Below, in pieces: positions 1 through 8,252 of a DNA stretch of 64,000 bases. A model generated the notes under the pieces. It had not been told where the DNA came from. It searched no databases and saw only the letters and a list, made by a program, of their open reading frames with translations. Each line of letters opens with the position of its first letter. Position 1 is the stretch's first letter. The position numbers were made by a program, and so were the translations under genes. Origin of the DNA: Escherichia coli (GTDB taxonomy: Bacteria; Pseudomonadota; Gammaproteobacteria; Enterobacterales; Enterobacteriaceae); the NCBI RefSeq assembly GCF_044324785.1, contig NZ_CP172127.1; one strand, given 5' to 3'.

Positions 1-168
1 CCAATTGATGAGCAAAAGACAATAACGAATTACTTGAGTGCAGCAACGATAAACATTGATTTACTGATTCAAGAGACTGATAAATCGATTGATCTTCTAA
101 AAGAACACCGCACATCGCTGATCAACGCGGCTGTCACAGGAAAAATAGACGTCAGGGAGGCGGTGTAA
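1..168 (+). CDS. hsdS: Type I R-M specificity subunit HsdS, C-terminal fragment (5' end outside window)
   Basis: Frame open from position 1 to TAA at 166-168; translation ends ...EHRTSLINAAVTGKIDVREAV, the conserved C-terminal helix of HsdS; stop overlaps the hsdR ATG (TAATG). Confidence 0.7.
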   Translation, partial: PIDEQKTITNYLSAATINIDLLIQETDKSIDLLKEHRTSLINAAVTGKIDVREAV

Positions 169-3100
169 TGGCTGCACATCATGAAGTGCATTTTGAACAA
201 TATATTACCGAGCAGTTGGTGAACAATGGCTGGAAAGAAGGCCATTCCTGCCACTATGACCAGCAACGCGCCCTTTACCCGCAAGATGTCATGGATTGGG
301 TAAAGGCCACCCAGCCAGATGCCTGGCACAAACTGAATAAACTGCATGGTGTGAATGCCGAGCAGGTGCTGTTGGAGCGTTTGGAAAAAGCCCTCTCTTC
401 CCACAAAGCTGGCAGTAAAACAGGTGGCACCATTAATGTGCTGCGTAAAGGCTTTACCATTGCAGGTTGCGGCACGATTGCCATGGGCCAACGCAAACCC
501 GAAGATGCGCGCAATGAAGAGCGTATAGCCCGTTATGAGCACAACATTTTGCGCGTGGTGCGCCAACTGAAATATTGCCCGACTCGCGAGTGGGAAATTG
601 ACTTGGTGTTCTTTATCAACGGTCTACCCGTTGCCACCGCCGAGCTAAAAACCGATTTTACCCAGTCGCTAGAATCGGCGATTGCGCAGTACAAAGAGGA
701 TCGTCTGCCCGTTGACCCAAAAACCAAGCGTAAAGAGCCGCTGTTAACCTTTAAACGCGGTGCAGTGGTACATTTTGCCATGTCTGATACAGAAATCGCC
801 ATGGCGACCAAACTGGCGGGAGAAAATACCTATTTTCTGCCCTTCAATAAAGGCCATGATGGTTCTACCTCTGATTTGCCCGTACACATCAACTTGCCGG
901 GTGAAGATGGAGAGTATCCGGTCAGCTATTTTTGGCAAGAAATTGCCCAAAAAGATAATTGGCTACGCATTTTCTACAGCTTTGTGTATGTCGAAACCAA
1001 AGAGGTTGCCGATAGCAATGGCAAGGTTGAGCGTAAGGAAACACAGATTTTTCCGCGTTATCATCAGTTAGCCGCAGTCAACAAGATGATTGATGATGCC
1101 CGCCAGAACGGCGCAGGCATGCAGTATCTTTGTGAGCACAGCGCCGGTTCGGGAAAAACCTCTACCATAGCCTGGACGGCCCATGATTTGATTCGTTTAC
1201 GCAGCACCGATGGTAAAGCGGTCTTTAAATCAGTGATCATTGTGACCGACCGCACCGTGCTGGATTCGCAGTTGCAAGATGCGGTGCAACAGCTGGATCA
1301 TCAATATGGGGTGATTAAGGTGATTGATCGCGAAAAGAGCAGCGAGTCGAAATCAAAACAGCTGACTGAAGCGCTATTGACTGGCACGCCGATCATTGTA
1401 GTGACGATTCAAACCTTCCCATATGCGTTAGAAGCGATTCTGACCAATCAATCTTTGGCACAAAGTAACTTTGCGGTGATCATCGATGAAGCACACACCT
1501 CGCAAACAGGCTCTACAGCCAAAGGGTTACGCGCAGCGCTTACTCTAAACCTTAGCCCTCAAGAGTTGGAGCAAATGAGCATTGAGGACATTCTTACTAA
1601 GGTGCAAGAAGCGCGCGCCATGCCCAAGAACGTTTCGCACTTTGCTTTTACGGCAACACCCAAGCACAGCACCAAGATGTTGTTTGGCCGCCCGAAAGAC
1701 CCTAACCAACCAGTGTCAGATGACAATCTTCCTGAATCGTTCCACCTCTACACCCAACGTCAGGCCATTGATGAGGGTTTTATTCTTGATGTGCTGGAGA
1801 ATTACACCCACTACGATACAGCCTACAAAATTGGTGAGAACAATCTGGATGAGAAGCGCGTAGACAGCAAACAAGCTCGCCGCGCGTTGGCGCGCTGGAT
1901 GTCACTGCACCCAACCACGGTCAGCCAAAAAGTCGAATTTATTATTAAGCACTTCAAGGCCAATATCGCTCACCTACTGGAAGGTGAAGCCAAAGCCATG
2001 GTGGTCACATCGGGCAGGCCACAGGCGGTGAAATACAAGCTTGCTTTTGATAAATACATTAAAAAGCATGGTATTGAAGGTATCCAAGCCTTGGTTGCCT
2101 TCTCGGGCAAAGTCCCCGGCAAAGATTTGGGTGATGAAGACAGCCAAGACCCGCTAGAAATTGATTTCGATAAAGAGTACACCGAGTACAACTTAAACCC
2201 AGACACGCACGGGGCTGACCTGCGCCATGAGTTTGAGAAAACCGAATATCGCGTCATGTTAGTCGCCAACAAGTTCCAAACGGGCTTTAATCAACCAAAA
2301 CTGGTTGCCATGTATTTGGATAAGAAAATATCCGATGTAGAAGCGGTGCAAACGCTGTCTCGCCTAAACCGCACCTATCCAGGCAAAGACACAACCTTCG
2401 TGATTGATTTTGTTAACGATCCACAAACCATTCTCAATGCGTTCAAAAAGTACGACAAAGGCGCGCAGCTTAATGAAGTGCAAGATGTGAACGTCATCTA
2501 TGACATCAAAGATATTTTGGATGAACAGAACATATACAACCATCAAGATTTAGAGTTGTTTAAGCAAGCGCGTGGTAAATCGATTCTCGGCCAATCACCT
2601 GACAAAAAGTCACACGCGCACAAGAAACTGCTAGCTGCCACACAACGCCCTACCGATGTGTTCAACGTTAAGCTCAAAGAGCTGGTTGATGCTGCAAACC
2701 ATTGGGATCAGCAATACAACAAAGCGCACCTTGCGGGTGATGAAAAAGCGGCGAACTACGCAGAATCTCAGCGCAGTGATTTCACCAAGCAGCGCGAAGC
2801 ACTAATGCGTTTTAAGTCAGATTTAGCTCGATTTGTGAAGCACTATAGCTATATGGCGCAATTGATTGAGTTTGGTGATCCTGAACTGGAAAACTTTGCC
2901 GCGTTTGCTCATTTGCTATCACGTCGATTGAAAGGGGTAACACCAGAAAACATCGATCTCAGTGCACTGGTACTAGAAAAATTCAAAATCAAATACGACA
3001 AAGAGCCGCTTCCAGAAGCGTTTAATCAGGTACTTGAACCTATCCGCCCCAACTATAACGACCCTGCGGATCGTGAACAGGCATTTCTTGCCGATATCAT

Positions 3101-3404
3101 TCGCCGCCTAAACGAACTGTTTGGCGATGTCGGCGACGAACCCGGTCGCCGAAACTTTGCCAACGGTACTATTACGCGTGTCACCCAAAATCCAATTGTG
3201 GTTGAGCAGATAGAAAAGCACGACAAGTCGATTGCCCTCAAAGGCGACTTGCCGCAAGCGGTGAAGCAAGCCGTTGTGCAGGCTCTGCTGAAAGAAGGTG
3301 ATATAGCCCGAACGCTACTCAAAGACCCACAAGTTATGGCAAGTTATGTTGAGTTGATTTTTGACATGATGAAGCAAGGTGCAGAACAGGCGGCGGTGAA
3401 ATAA
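168..3404 (+). CDS. hsdR: Type I restriction enzyme R subunit HsdR (1078 aa)
   Basis: Long ORF with SF2 helicase motifs (EHSAGSGKTSTIAW Walker A, IIDEAH DEAH box) and N-terminal nuclease region typical of HsdR; immediately follows hsdS. Confidence 0.9.
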   Translation: MAAHHEVHFEQYITEQLVNNGWKEGHSCHYDQQRALYPQDVMDWVKATQPDAWHKLNKLHGVNAEQVLLERLEKALSSHKAGSKTGGTINVLRKGFTIAGCGTIAMGQRKPEDARNEERIARYEHNILRVVRQLKYCPTREWEIDLVFFINGLPVATAELKTDFTQSLESAIAQYKEDRLPVDPKTKRKEPLLTFKRGAVVHFAMSDTEIAMATKLAGENTYFLPFNKGHDGSTSDLPVHINLPGEDGEYPVSYFWQEIAQKDNWLRIFYSFVYVETKEVADSNGKVERKETQIFPRYHQLAAVNKMIDDARQNGAGMQYLCEHSAGSGKTSTIAWTAHDLIRLRSTDGKAVFKSVIIVTDRTVLDSQLQDAVQQLDHQYGVIKVIDREKSSESKSKQLTEALLTGTPIIVVTIQTFPYALEAILTNQSLAQSNFAVIIDEAHTSQTGSTAKGLRAALTLNLSPQELEQMSIEDILTKVQEARAMPKNVSHFAFTATPKHSTKMLFGRPKDPNQPVSDDNLPESFHLYTQRQAIDEGFILDVLENYTHYDTAYKIGENNLDEKRVDSKQARRALARWMSLHPTTVSQKVEFIIKHFKANIAHLLEGEAKAMVVTSGRPQAVKYKLAFDKYIKKHGIEGIQALVAFSGKVPGKDLGDEDSQDPLEIDFDKEYTEYNLNPDTHGADLRHEFEKTEYRVMLVANKFQTGFNQPKLVAMYLDKKISDVEAVQTLSRLNRTYPGKDTTFVIDFVNDPQTILNAFKKYDKGAQLNEVQDVNVIYDIKDILDEQNIYNHQDLELFKQARGKSILGQSPDKKSHAHKKLLAATQRPTDVFNVKLKELVDAANHWDQQYNKAHLAGDEKAANYAESQRSDFTKQREALMRFKSDLARFVKHYSYMAQLIEFGDPELENFAAFAHLLSRRLKGVTPENIDLSALVLEKFKIKYDKEPLPEAFNQVLEPIRPNYNDPADREQAFLADIIRRLNELFGDVGDEPGRRNFANGTITRVTQNPIVVEQIEKHDKSIALKGDLPQAVKQAVVQALLKEGDIARTLLKDPQVMASYVELIFDMMKQGAEQAAVK

Positions 3405-3958
3405 TGAATACTGCGTTTCGGGTTTTACTTACGTTCAATGCAACATCACTACTAGTGATTATCTTTGCGGTACAAAAAGGGTACTCACTCGGATATTTCT
3501 TTGGTGGTTTCGCTTGCTTCGATTGGATAGCAGCACTTCCGAACGCAGTATCATATTTACTCTATTTTCTTATCCCTGTTTTATCGACTGGATTGAGTAT
3601 TTGGCTGAGTAAGTATTTGGGTAAAGACGATTTTAAGGCGGGTGAAGTAGCGAGTATTGAGCATGCCAATAACAGCTTCCTACCAAGTTATTTGGGTTAC
3701 TTTTTCGTGGCGTTGAGCATTGGTAACTGGGAGACATTGTGGTTTGTTTATGGCGTTTTGTTTGTTTTTACTCTCTTATCGCAAGCACTCTACTTTAACC
3801 CATTGTTTTTACTGTTTGGTTATGAGTTTTATAACATTACAACCAAAAACGGAACGGCCATTTTCCTTATTAGCCGAGAGCGCTACAAGAAGCCAGATGA
3901 CATCGAAATATCATTGGCTTATCGAATCAATAATTACACATTTATCGAGCGAGGATAA
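3404..3958 (+). CDS. Multi-pass membrane protein (184 aa), first gene of candidate two-gene defence module (KwaA-like architecture, unverified)
   Basis: ATG overlaps the hsdR stop; 4-5 hydrophobic helices (LLVIIFAVQ, FACFDWIAALPNAVSYLLYFLIPVLSTGLSIWL, YFFVALSIGNWETLWFVYGVLFVFTLL, LFLLFGYEF); visibly AT-richer than hsdR. Confidence 0.6.
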   Translation: MNTAFRVLLTFNATSLLVIIFAVQKGYSLGYFFGGFACFDWIAALPNAVSYLLYFLIPVLSTGLSIWLSKYLGKDDFKAGEVASIEHANNSFLPSYLGYFFVALSIGNWETLWFVYGVLFVFTLLSQALYFNPLFLLFGYEFYNITTKNGTAIFLISRERYKKPDDIEISLAYRINNYTFIERG

Positions 3959-4800
3959 TGATGGACCATGTACTGGCACATATAAAAACTAGAGCAAAAA
4001 AACGCATTTTCAAATTGGTTTCTGATCAATCTCTTTTTGATACCGTCACAATCGACTTAAATGCCTGTATTCCATACAATCCAGACCATAACCTTGACGA
4101 AGACTCATGGTTTAAAATTGAAGACTTTAGTCAAAAAGAGTTTTGTATTGAACTGCTAAAAAAAGACTATGATTCAAAAGACTACGATGACTTAACCAAA
4201 GATAACTTCGCCAAGATCGCCTACTTATTTGCAATTCAAGGTAATGATTTTTACTTTCAAAAAATCACTCCAAGCCTATTCGTAAAACGCAAAACGCTTG
4301 TTTTTGGTGAAGCCGCAGAAATTGAGAAGAGCCAAACACGTTTAGTAATAAACGCCTTACCTGATGCAGTGTACTTCAAAGTGGCCGATACCTTGATATT
4401 CAAAAATCTGGCAACGATCTCGAGCATTTTTAAAGGTATCGATGAGTTGTACAAGGAAGCAACAAAAGAAGAAGTTGAGCAGTTTTTAGATGCACAGTTT
4501 ATAGAGTTGGGTAATGACTACAACGTAGATAGCGTCTCAAAACCTAATAGAAAACGTATTGGCCTTGCTATGGCAACACTTGATGCGATGTCTGCTGACG
4601 ATAAAGCTAACATGCTTGATTATATCGACGGTTACTGCGGTGAACAGAAGCTGAAATTCGATAAAGAAAATCAGAAGTTTGAAATATCTAATGACGATGA
4701 GTTGAAGTTACTGCTTTATGGCATTGAACAACGCTTCTATACGACCCCGTTTGGCAAAGAAAAAAGGCTCGCTAACTCTGTAACCGCTATGGATAAATAA
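3958..4800 (+). CDS. Soluble protein of unknown function (280 aa), second gene of candidate defence module (KwaB/DUF4868-like by architecture only)
   Basis: Start overlaps the upstream stop (TAATGATG); acidic, K/D/E-rich, no hydrophobic segments, no motif I recognise; AT-rich. Confidence 0.55.
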   Translation: MMDHVLAHIKTRAKKRIFKLVSDQSLFDTVTIDLNACIPYNPDHNLDEDSWFKIEDFSQKEFCIELLKKDYDSKDYDDLTKDNFAKIAYLFAIQGNDFYFQKITPSLFVKRKTLVFGEAAEIEKSQTRLVINALPDAVYFKVADTLIFKNLATISSIFKGIDELYKEATKEEVEQFLDAQFIELGNDYNVDSVSKPNRKRIGLAMATLDAMSADDKANMLDYIDGYCGEQKLKFDKENQKFEISNDDELKLLLYGIEQRFYTTPFGKEKRLANSVTAMDK

Positions 4801-4820
4801 TAGCCCATTATCAGTAACAT

Positions 4821-5870
4821 ATGAAGGTTGATTCAATGGCCGATAACATCCCACAAGCTCCTCAAGGTGAGTTTGTTCTTTTCACCAGTGCTGATGGTCA
4901 AACCCGCGTTGAGTGTCGTTTTGAGTCTGACACCTTGTGGCTTTCTCAGGCTGCAATGGCAGAGCTTTATCAAGTTAGCTCTCAAGCAATCACCCAACAC
5001 GTAAAAGCTGTCTATTCTGAAGAAGAGCTTGAGCAAATTTCAACTTGTAAGGATTACTTACAAGTTCAACTGGAAGGTGGCAGAGAAGTAAAGCGAAGCA
5101 TTCGTCACTACAGTCTTCCGGTTATTCTTGCAGTAGGATACCGAGTTCGCTCAACACGTGGCACCCAGTTCCGCCAATGGGCAACCAGAATGTTGCAAGA
5201 ATACCTAATCAAAGGATTCGTCATGGATGACGAGCGCCTGAAAAATCCGCCCATTGGCCATTCTGCTGTGCCAGATTACTTTGATGAAATGCTGGAACGC
5301 ATTCGTGATATCCGAGCTAGTGAGCGTCGCGTTTATCTGCGAGTCAAAGAAATCTTTACCATGGCTGCTGATTACGAGCCATCTAACCAAGAGACCAACC
5401 GCTTCTTCCAAACCATTCAGAATAAGCTGCATTATGCTTGTACGCATATGACGGCTGCTGAGCTTATCGCCAGCCGTGTGGATGCCAGTAAGCCGGATAT
5501 GGGCTTAACCAGCTATAAAGGCGATGAAGTGCGCAAGACAGACGTTACTGTTGCCAAGAACTATTTGCGTGAAGACGAAATCAAAGAGCTTAATCGCATC
5601 GTCAATATGTGGCTCGACTTTGCTGAAGACCAAGCACTGCGTCGCAAGCAGGTATTTTTACAGGACTGGGCCGATAAGCTTGACCAGTTCTTGAGTTTTA
5701 ACGATAGAGATGTATTAAACGGTGCAGGAAAAATCTCCAAGAAAGACGCTGATGACAAAGCGAAATTGGAGTTTGACCGCTTTGCCCAGCAGCGCCGTCG
5801 TTTAAAAGAAGCCGAAGGCGCACGGGCCAATATCGCAGCCCTCAAGGCCATACTAAAAAAAGATAAATAG
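4821..5870 (+). CDS. RhuM-family protein (alternative start at ATG 4836)
   Basis: N-terminal segment LFTSADGQTRVECRFESDTLWLSQAAMAELYQVSSQAITQHVKAVY matches the RhuM family N-terminal region as I recall it; 20 bp downstream of the preceding gene, same strand. Confidence 0.55.
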   Translation: MKVDSMADNIPQAPQGEFVLFTSADGQTRVECRFESDTLWLSQAAMAELYQVSSQAITQHVKAVYSEEELEQISTCKDYLQVQLEGGREVKRSIRHYSLPVILAVGYRVRSTRGTQFRQWATRMLQEYLIKGFVMDDERLKNPPIGHSAVPDYFDEMLERIRDIRASERRVYLRVKEIFTMAADYEPSNQETNRFFQTIQNKLHYACTHMTAAELIASRVDASKPDMGLTSYKGDEVRKTDVTVAKNYLREDEIKELNRIVNMWLDFAEDQALRRKQVFLQDWADKLDQFLSFNDRDVLNGAGKISKKDADDKAKLEFDRFAQQRRRLKEAEGARANIAALKAILKKDK

Positions 5871-5927
5871 CCGATATAGTACAGCCCTGATCTCTAATGA
5901 GTTGAGGGCTGTGTTGTAAGATCATAA

Positions 5928-6604
5928 CTATAAAGGATTATCCATCTTAAAATCGTCGATATCGCCTGTCATTTTGAATAGATTGGTGTCATTCCAACGG
6001 CACAGTTGTCTAACCCGCATTAGATTTGAGTTGGCTCTGCGGATTATTGAGAAAGCATCTTCAACAGCAGTAATCACCGATTTTTCCCAATCTTGTGCTC
6101 GGGTAAAGGTGCTTTGTGAATAGCGATAATTGCCCTCACGGGGGAGGTAATGGCTGATCACCTGGTATTTGTCAGAATTCTTTTTAGGTTTAAACTCGTT
6201 GTAAACCCAGAAAATTTCGAGTTTTTTGTTTCTTTGCCTTACACGACAACCAAAATGACCTGGGTAGCCTTCAGAGTTTTTACCTCTATGTGCAACGTTG
6301 TTCAGCCAGAACAAGTCTGCAATTTTTTGTGCTATGTAGAAGTAGCGGAGCTGTTCTATTTCGGTTGATTTATGGGTGTAGTGTAGATATTGCTCTGATA
6401 TGGTTAAGGAAAAAGCATTGCGTCGTCTTGATTAACATTTGTGCTATTGACAATAAAGGTTTCCCAAATATTAATTTGTGTTTCTAGTCCTTTAAATGAT
6501 TTTGAGAAGGCTTCTATGTACTCAGATTGCGGTTGATTTCCCCCATTTAGTGCTGCACCAAATGTAGCTATCTGTTGTTCTAAAAATGAATGATTTTTGG
6601 TCAT
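5928..6604 (-). pseudogene. Hypothetical AT-rich gene, apparently frameshifted (66-aa frame 6404-6604 continuing in +1 frame to 5928)
   Basis: Good SD (AGAGGA) before ATG at 6604; second frame opens just before the first frame's stop and runs ~155 codons with no ATG (ORF track used TTG at 6314); abutted by the IS3-family TIR. Confidence 0.35.
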
Positions 6605-6664: not shown

Positions 6665-6712
6665 CCCCCTGTGTCAGCATAGTTGTCGCCTCAATTTTTT
6701 AAGGAGATAACA

Positions 6713-7225
6713 ATGCCAGGACAACCAATACCAAATGAGCTCAAAGAAAAAGGACTGATATGGCTTTTGCCACCATACTGTTGGTCACACCGTCAGATAG
6801 CCCGGAAGCTGAAGATCAGTGCCTCAGTTGTATCAAAATGGAGATGTGAGTTAGTGGAGCAAGGACTTTTACCTGAAAATGAAAAGATTACCTCCGTTGA
6901 TGTTGAAGACTGGACACCGGAGCGTCGATTCTCAGTTGTTCTTGAGACGGCTACGCTGTCAGAAATGGAACTTGCTGATTATTGCCGACGCATGGGATTG
7001 TTTGTTGAACAGGTTAAAGAATGGCGGGCTATCTCAATTCAGGCGCATGAAAAGAAATTGACGGAAAATATCCGAACAGACAGGGCATTGCGTGACGCAA
7101 AAAATAAGTTACGAGAACTGGAGAAAGAGCTTAAGCGCAAAGATAAAGCTCTGGCGGAAGCAGCTGCCCTGCTTATATTAAGGGAAAAGTTCAATGCCCT
7201 CTGGGACAACAGCGAGGAAGACTGA
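6713..7225 (+). CDS. IS3-family transposase OrfA (HTH plus leucine-zipper region)
   Basis: SD AAGGAG 6 nt before ATG 6713; C-terminal heptad-like LRELEKELKRKDKALAEAAALLILREKF. Confidence 0.6.
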   Translation: MPGQPIPNELKEKGLIWLLPPYCWSHRQIARKLKISASVVSKWRCELVEQGLLPENEKITSVDVEDWTPERRFSVVLETATLSEMELADYCRRMGLFVEQVKEWRAISIQAHEKKLTENIRTDRALRDAKNKLRELEKELKRKDKALAEAAALLILREKFNALWDNSEED

Positions 7226-8252
7226 CCCCTCTCCTGGAGCGGCATAAAATTATTTCTCTTGTCCGTGAGGCCGTCGCCAACGGCGCCCGGAAAGGTCAGG
7301 CTTGTAGGTGTATCGGTATTTCTATTCGGACACTTCAGCGCTGGACTAATGGCAACATCATCACCACGGACCGAAGATCCGATACTGTAAACAGCTCTCC
7401 CCGAAATAAGCTGTCAGAAGCGGAAAGATTGCGAATACTGGAGTTGTGCAACTCTCCAGAGTTTGCATCCTTGCCTCCAAATGTGATCGTACCAACTCTG
7501 GCAGACAGAGGTATTTATATTGCTTCTGAATCAAGTTTTTATCGTGTACTGAAATCAGCCAAGCAGTTGAAGAAACGATCCCGTGAATGCCAGTATAAAC
7601 TGGCCTGATGTACTCAGGGCCGTTGCACCGAATCAAGTCTGGAGTTGGGACATCAGCTATTTGCCGTCCTGGGTCAGAGGCCAGCATTTTTACCTCTATA
7701 TGATCGTCGATATTTACAGTCGCAAAATTATTGCTGCTGAGGTATTTGCCAGCGAATCTGGAAAACATGCAGCAGAACTACTCCAGCGTGCAGTATGGAA
7801 TGAAAAATGTTCATCCAACAATCTGGTACTCCATTCTGATAACGGTGGTCCCATGCGCAGTGACACGTTGTTGGCGAAAATGTATGCGCTTGGTGTGCTA
7901 AGTTCTTATTCCCGGCCAAGAGTCAGTAATGATAATCCTTACTCAGAATCTTTGTTCCGGACTCTCAAATATTGTCCCTGGTGGCCTGAGAACGGTTTTC
8001 GCACTATTGATGATGCCAGAGTATGGGTAAACCAGTTTTGTAAACTGGTACAACTTTGAACATAAGCACAGCGGGATCAAATACGTCACGCCAGCCGAGC
8101 GTCATCAAGGTAATGATATGAAAATACTGGCGGCCAGAAAAGCAGTATACCAGCTGGCACGCGAACAGCATCCTGAACGTTGGGGAAAGCATCTACGTAA
8201 CTGGGACTACATATCAGAAGTCTACCTGAATCCAGAAAAAGAGGCTGCATAA
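7222..8252 (+). pseudogene. IS3-family transposase OrfB (DDE integrase core), interrupted by extra frameshifts/stops
   Basis: Integrase-core sequence split over three frames (...CQYKLA stop; VWSWDISYLP...SDNGGPMRSDT...KYCPWWP; HSGIKYVTPAERH... ending 8252). Confidence 0.55.

Follow-up and report, generated by a model that had tools for sequence, protein, structure and literature searches.

We examined whether two adjacent genes, here called orfA and orfB, within a 64,000-nucleotide stretch of the Escherichia coli contig NZ_CP172127.1 (assembly GCF_044324785.1; the whole stretch is referred to as the window) encode a known defence system. The pair is very probably a Kiwa system of a divergent clade, situated at the 3' end of a Type I restriction-modification (R-M) operon within a tRNA-Leu-associated E. 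coli island; this identification is made because the two adjacent proteins independently match the two components, KwaA and KwaB, of one system. An original prediction, drawn from the letters of this DNA, had described the pair as a candidate for an uncharacterised and perhaps undescribed defence system, and had remarked that its layout could be that of Kiwa KwaA/KwaB. The second suggestion was borne out by matches to PADLOC models and by structure comparison with the solved Kiwa proteins; the first must be given up, as the pair belongs, if divergently, to a family that has been described and whose mechanism has been studied. The two genes are:

3404-3958, + strand: orfA, the kwaA-like gene, an open reading frame (ORF) for a 184-aa inner-membrane protein
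3958-4800, + strand: orfB, the kwaB-like gene, an ORF for a 280-aa soluble two-domain protein

The RefSeq accessions of the two proteins are WP_001090220.1 and WP_000968685.1. Kiwa has been studied in E. coli ECOR8/ECOR12 and O55:H7 RM12579 (Zhang, Todeschini et al., PMC11785009), and its solved structures are 9mrg, 9mrx, 9mtn, 9nyu and 9o0i. When searched against PADLOC-DB the orfA protein matched nine KwaA models (best E 9.3e-16, with residues 2-182 aligned to model positions 3-170 of 173), and the orfB protein matched three KwaB models (E 7.1e-14, 1.2e-8 and 2.1e-6; the best alignment joined residues 33-276 to model positions 42-289 of 292). Alignments to the Kiwa sub-models PDLC00216/PDLC00221 (KwaA) and PDLC00222/PDLC00234 (KwaB) were near full length, with E of 1e-14 to 1e-16; the scores, however, were modest at 50-56 bits, and the window clade is therefore not among the sequence sets behind these PADLOC models.

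The predicted structures gave the same assignment. Kyte-Doolittle hydrophobic peaks of orfA fell at residues 3-25, 41-69 and 111-138, and its AlphaFold model (30-sequence alignment, mean pLDDT 84.9) contained helices at 2-25, 47-71, 93-105 and 109-125, read as four transmembrane (TM) helices, together with six beta strands, two in the TM2-TM3 loop and four at the C-terminus, from which a cytoplasmic six-stranded beta domain is predicted. The earlier estimate of a membrane protein with 4-5 TM helices was thus right as to the membrane, and the count settles at four by the AlphaFold model. KwaA is built of four TM helices and a six-stranded beta-barrel formed from intracellular loop 1 (ICL1) and the C-terminus (PMC11785009); the orfA model shows both of these elements, and a solved Kiwa protein was the single outstanding structural match for its predicted fold. 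The orfB protein is without a hydrophobic segment (maximum KD19 1.22), in agreement with its earlier description as soluble. Its AlphaFold model (61-sequence alignment, mean pLDDT 90.3) is rich in beta structure in its N-terminal domain and helical in its C-terminal domain, as in the KwaB fold with its N-terminal alpha/beta domain and C-terminal helical DUF4868 domain. In a Foldseek search of the PDB the top six matches for this model were all KwaB chains (9mtn, 9mrx and 9nyu; E 8e-7 to 9e-6, probability 1.00), and the seventh match fell to E 0.14. Structure prediction followed by Foldseek, one of the checks proposed with the original prediction, thereby returned solved Kiwa proteins as the outstanding match for both folds.

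The pair is also conserved as a pair. The orfB family numbered 1334 proteins when clustered at 90%, and a search of the 50%-identity clusters gave 534 representatives at E<=0.001, with identity of 82-95% between E. coli, Plesiomonas, Aeromonas, Shewanella, Vibrio and Alteromonas. In each of the 44 related loci where both genes could be read, the orfB homologue was immediately preceded by an orfA homologue, and in the window the two genes are likewise adjacent and co-oriented, in the kwaA-then-kwaB order of Kiwa. The number of orfB cluster representatives, taken with the constant presence of the upstream partner, establishes that orfA and orfB are both real, conserved genes. Spacing between the intact genes ranged in most loci from a 4-base overlap to a 5-base gap (larger apparent overlaps were an artefact of longest-ORF reading); gaps of 181 and 317 bases occurred at L042 and L043, where orfB is interrupted. 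Within the clade the KwaA-like protein was more conserved than the KwaB-like protein (identity 79% vs 65% for locus L023, 80% vs 68% for L021), and its near-invariant stretches, IEHANNSFLPSYLGYFFVALS and SQALYFNPLFLLFGYEFYN, have their centre in TM3, TM4 and the adjoining loops (alignment A2). The orfB family has a near-invariant N197-R198 inside a K-x-N-R-K-R motif in the helical domain, as well as R259. The DNA-contact residues of the studied KwaB are R142, R167, K187, R233, N134 and D169 (PMC11785009); N197-R198/K-x-N-R-K-R of orfB is a candidate DNA-contact patch.

Several results weigh against the Kiwa assignment. The NCBIfam KwaA equivalog NF041622 gave orfA 25.4 bits where its cutoff is 100; Pfam PF16162 (KwaB, formerly DUF4868) did not match orfB even at E<=10; an NCBIfam scan of orfB returned no match; an hhalign comparison of the orfB family with a single clade of canonical KwaB (alignment A3, all of whose members carry PF16162) was not significant at E 0.22; one of the two RefSeq names of orfB is "hypothetical"; and at the pairwise level the sequence link of the two proteins to Kiwa is weak. 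Further searches were likewise empty: BLASTP of orfA with the canonical KwaA of E. coli SMS-3-5 gave no match, Pfam-A scans of orfA (PF28043 included) and of orfB found none, no Pfam domain (PF16162 included) was on record among the 120 closest orfB relatives, and phmmer/hmmsearch runs of the single orfA and orfB proteins and of their family profiles with the PDB sequences matched no Kiwa entry, where the control queries, canonical KwaA and a canonical KwaB fragment, readily found the Kiwa PDB entries. One could read from the failure of Pfam DUF4868/KwaB and NCBIfam to recognise orfB, from the non-significant profile-profile comparison and from the "hypothetical" label that the pair shares no more than its layout with Kiwa and forms an undescribed membrane-anchored defence system. 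We hold this to be very improbable, for both proteins matched several PADLOC Kiwa models near full length, both folds had solved Kiwa proteins as their single outstanding match, and it is very unlikely that an unrelated pair would match both partners of one system independently. Some family members, moreover, do reach Pfam KwaB: 4 of 61 diverse orfB family members matched PF16162 at E<=0.001 and 7 of 61 at E<=0.1, which supplies a transitive sequence link from orfB to KwaB. For orfA, Pfam PF28043 KwaA is recorded for 85%-identical orthologues in V. cholerae and Alteromonas, and recent RefSeq records call the identical E. coli protein "KwaA family protein".

PADLOC-type models hence reach both genes of the divergent Kiwa pair; Pfam and NCBI naming miss the KwaB. 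Among canonical KwaB all listed proteins of at least 195 aa carry PF16162, the three without it being two short fragments and one chimeric entry. A Pfam DUF4868 search of the 280-aa protein was another check proposed with the original prediction; its negative outcome, taken alone, would have led wrongly away from Kiwa. A sizeable Kiwa clade is in this way invisible to Pfam DUF4868 and to NCBI KwaB naming, and Kiwa counts based on these resources will therefore be underestimates.

The other RefSeq name of orfB is "ATP F0F1 synthase synthase", and this legacy NCBI product name is the one point in favour of a housekeeping or other non-defence role, for example as a transporter subunit. Such a role is scarcely credible. 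No ATP-synthase or transporter family matched either protein or 61 relatives, the pair is present in 109 of 5426 complete E. coli genomes (~2%) and always in variable islands, and its neighbours are defence and mobile-element genes. The ATP-synthase name was rejected for the family, as no ATP-synthase family matched orfB or its 61 relatives; it is a misnomer, an annotation artefact that has spread to many NCBI records of the family, several of the 120 closest relatives among them. An undescribed system and a housekeeping role are both essentially excluded.

Compared with the studied Kiwa, the window pair has the same two-gene operon of kwaA then kwaB, a membrane protein of the same kind (about 185-200 aa, four TM helices, a six-stranded cytoplasmic beta domain), a soluble two-domain KwaB-like partner, and the same occurrence in variable, horizontally spread defence islands; the studied Kiwa is the best and only strong structural match for both proteins. 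It differs in that pairwise or profile similarity of the window proteins to the solved proteins was not detectable, the KwaB-like protein has 277-280 aa rather than 315-327 aa, and Pfam PF16162 and the NCBIfam KwaA equivalog do not recognise the window proteins. The global TM-score was only about 0.4, which means that either the way the domains are arranged or some of the C-terminal domain departs from the studied Kiwa. The window clade is known from sequence and predicted structure, whereas the studied Kiwa is known from experiment. The clade should serve as a very distant natural comparator for Kiwa structures, and residues conserved between it and the studied Kiwa should mark the essentials of membrane sensing and DNA binding.

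What is directly supported is that the two genes are present and conserved as a pair, that they are homologous to KwaA/KwaB at the level of hidden Markov models and folds, and that they stand in a defence-island context; oligomeric state, trigger, DNA binding and phage protection we infer from the studied E. coli Kiwa. By this analogy, the KwaA-like protein would assemble as a tetramer in the inner membrane and keep dimers of KwaB tethered there. KwaA would sense the disturbance caused in the membrane when a phage attaches or injects its DNA, or during conjugation. The response would come from KwaB, which would bind the entering DNA whatever its sequence; replication would stall and late gene transcription would thereby be blocked.

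The surroundings of the pair in the window are as follows:

168-3404, + strand: hsdR, a 1078-aa ORF, Type I R-M restriction subunit
3402-3406, + strand: TAATG junction of hsdR and the kwaA-like gene, in which the stop and the next ATG share one base
3956-3960, + strand: TAATG junction of the kwaA-like and kwaB-like genes, in which the stop and the next ATG share one base
4821-5870, + strand: rhuM family gene, a 349-aa ORF 20 bp past orfB, PADLOC candidate PDC-S05

The identity of hsdR was given by PADLOC REase_I (E 2.6e-30); with NCBIfam TIGR00348 it scored 166 bits, under the 284-bit cutoff. The window opens at the end of hsdS, with hsdM and hsdS lying upstream of its start. The downstream gene matched PADLOC PDC-S05 at E 8e-167 and carries the RefSeq name "virulence RhuM family protein". 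Neither gene is a Kiwa component: hsdR belongs to the genomic host operon of the pair, and rhuM is a neighbour. The stop/start overlaps at 3404 and 3958, which the original prediction read as translational coupling, were confirmed as one-base overlaps at both junctions. Between 2900 and 6400 no promoter-like or terminator-like site exceeded the shuffled expectation. The overlaps together with this lack of signals above chance suggest that orfA and orfB are co-transcribed with hsdMSR and expressed from the hsd operon. Immediately past rhuM, by the SMS-3-5 annotation, come a mobI(A/C)-like gene of conjugative transfer and the frameshifted remains of an IS3-family transposase, at 5928-6314 (-) and 6683-8059 (+).

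Neighbourhoods in other genomes were assessed by a locus scan (one genome per species, single-protein query), which gave 39 loci for comparison; they belong to Gamma- and Betaproteobacteria, Desulfobacterota and Firmicutes. Annotation of representatives identified the ~544-aa and ~420-aa genes before the pair in many loci as HsdM and HsdS, and the ~1050-aa genes on either side of it as HsdR; these proteins then served as queries for the other loci. In a sample biased towards relatives of the query, with 14 loci sharing one Hsd lineage, Hsd genes directly adjoined the pair in 27-28 of about 34 evaluable loci (about 80%), and among these R-M-adjacent loci the Hsd proteins fell into six lineages or more and the genes into three orders, M-S-R-A-B (the window), R-M-S-A-B and M-S-A-B-R. 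The pair of many relatives sits exactly between hsdS and hsdR, with 1- or 4-base overlaps with hsdS. No Hsd gene was nearby in 6 of the 39 loci (L013, L035, L039, L042, L044 and L047). A nuclease-like gene (DUF2357/PDDEXK_7) stands before the pair in V. cholerae and Alteromonas, and DarTG or RhuM comes after it; other neighbours included Hachiman, DarTG and PDC-S14, and rhuM was the next gene downstream of the pair in Vibrio (L010/L011), Aliiglaciecola (L013) and Alteromonas (L004). The defence-island setting proposed from the window is accordingly repeated, with defence and mobile-element neighbours, in many genomes. Loci of the R-M-S-A-B order often have a UG5-nitrilase reverse transcriptase next; at L023 (8847-12062) this is a 1072-aa reverse transcriptase-nitrilase fusion directly downstream of the pair (PADLOC RT_UG5-nitrilase, E 0, DRT class), and the fusion also follows the pair in L014, L015, L021, L028 and L032, forming a three-system cluster. 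The Mangrovibacter loci L045 and L046 have rhuM beside a KwaB fragment only.

This association could mean that the Kiwa pair is functionally coupled to the Type I R-M enzyme, either because a KwaB roadblock triggers cleavage by HsdR or as a back-up, in the manner of PrrC with EcoprrI, that comes into play once the R-M enzyme is inhibited, by acting itself or by titrating anti-restriction proteins that mimic DNA. Cleavage by Type I enzymes takes place at the point where translocation meets a block, which agrees with the first variant. The overlaps with hsdR in the window and with hsdS in many loci, the spread of Hsd adjacency over lineages and gene orders, and a second E. coli island that repeats the M-S-R-A-B order are further points for coupling, as is the report that canonical KwaB is bound by the DNA mimic Gam, with inhibitor partitioning with RecBCD (PMC11785009). 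The same survey speaks the other way: the pair occurs without an adjacent Type I R-M system in E. coli 042 and 55989, in V. cholerae and Alteromonas and in the six loci listed above; the Hsd partners come from lineages that are not related to one another, and a specific partnership between proteins is less likely for that reason; Type I R-M operons harbour many defence systems unrelated to Kiwa, with the hsdS-hsdR gap regarded as an insertion hotspot; the bias of the sample bears on the count; and canonical Kiwa cloned alone protects (PMC11785009). We consider functional coupling unlikely, in view of the R-M-free pairs, the unrelated Hsd lineages and the commonness of embedding. Were it true, the locus would be a two-layer system with Kiwa as a dedicated partner of Type I restriction enzymes, rather than two neighbours; otherwise it is an ordinary defence-island cassette, the main value of which is an annotation correction and a distant Kiwa comparator. 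The frequent co-translation with Type I R-M genes makes the clade a convenient natural case in which to ask whether an embedded module cooperates with its host system.

PrrC is functionally dependent on its R-M enzyme. A module of PrrC-like logic would be expected almost exclusively inside Type I R-M operons; the Kiwa pair was adjacent to such genes in about 80% of loci, with clear exceptions, and unlike PrrC it also occurs away from R-M systems. The literature regards the interior of the Type I R-M operon as a hotspot for embedded defence modules, known examples being PrrC in EcoprrI and DarTG2 between hsdS and hsdR in enteropathogenic E. coli (EPEC) (PMC12255303; Payne et al., 10.1101/2024.01.29.577857); Kiwa is not specifically mentioned in either of these two papers. 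Like PrrC/EcoprrI and the EPEC DarTG2, the window module is co-oriented with the hsd operon and apparently co-transcribed from it; its own place is after hsdR and not between hsdS and hsdR. The proposal that the clade is strictly tied to Type I R-M, and for that reason special, was rejected on the R-M-free contexts and on the finding of canonical Kiwa between hsdS and hsdR: of four canonical lineages sampled, two were in P4-like satellites and two lay between these genes (Steroidobacter and Halarcobacter). R-M embedding is not special to the window clade.

The original prediction took the AT-richness of the pair to indicate a horizontally acquired insert. The pair is indeed AT-richer than hsdR (GC of 0.389 for orfA and 0.371 for orfB vs 0.479 for hsdR, with 0.466 for rhuM and 0.522 for the whole window), but in each of 15 further genomes, too, its GC fell short of that of the flanks, by 4 to 23 points; the low GC is thus a property of the cassette in every host and does not prove recent arrival here. 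What did hold was the horizontal transfer itself. The region 3399-5870 (kwaA-kwaB-rhuM) has 78% DNA identity to Aliiglaciecola (L013) and Alteromonas (L004), where the upstream gene differs, and because it is found behind different upstream genes the cassette is clearly mobile and modular. In the window the larger block of hsdR through rhuM (85-5869) has about 90% DNA identity to Vibrio sp. ES.051 over its whole length, and the hsdR-orfA-orfB-rhuM block has therefore moved as a unit.

Within E. coli, positions 3000-6000 were 100% identical to many chromosomes; 76 of the 5426 complete genomes match, none of them on a plasmid, and 33 further genomes carry variants at 60-80% DNA identity. Plasmid searches for the pair gave 20 distant matches only, and searches of phage genomes gave none. 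In E. coli SMS-3-5 the region is on an island by tRNA-Leu and an integrase, in the order hsdM, hsdS, hsdR, two "hypothetical proteins", RhuM family protein, mobI(A/C) and insertion sequence (IS) remnants; RefSeq names its hsdR "type I restriction endonuclease subunit R", after subunits M and S. About 7 kb downstream of the divergent pair SMS-3-5 also has a canonical kwaA, annotated as such, and a KwaB split by ISVsa5 (L001 23094-26027), and this strain holds two very different Kiwa systems in one island. The possibility that the canonical, IS-disrupted Kiwa is also in the window was dismissed, as the window matches that island only to ~8296. Directly 5' of hsdM in SMS-3-5, outside the window, is a RelB/DinJ-type antitoxin-like gene (L001 8340-8837); repression of R-M-centred defence islands has been demonstrated for small regulators at the pre-hsdM position (RptR, PMC12255303). 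On another E. coli island, at leuX, the M-S-R genes precede a copy of the pair that is frameshifted. In E. coli 042 and 55989 a variant with 67% identity to the pair lies within the aai type VI secretion island, where no Type I R-M is adjacent. There (L050/L051 8836-12131) the pair is followed by PAPS reductase-like and IbrB-like genes, with a GIY-YIG nuclease and a 3'-5' exonuclease upstream, and together these may represent a small defence cluster that interrupts the type VI secretion locus.

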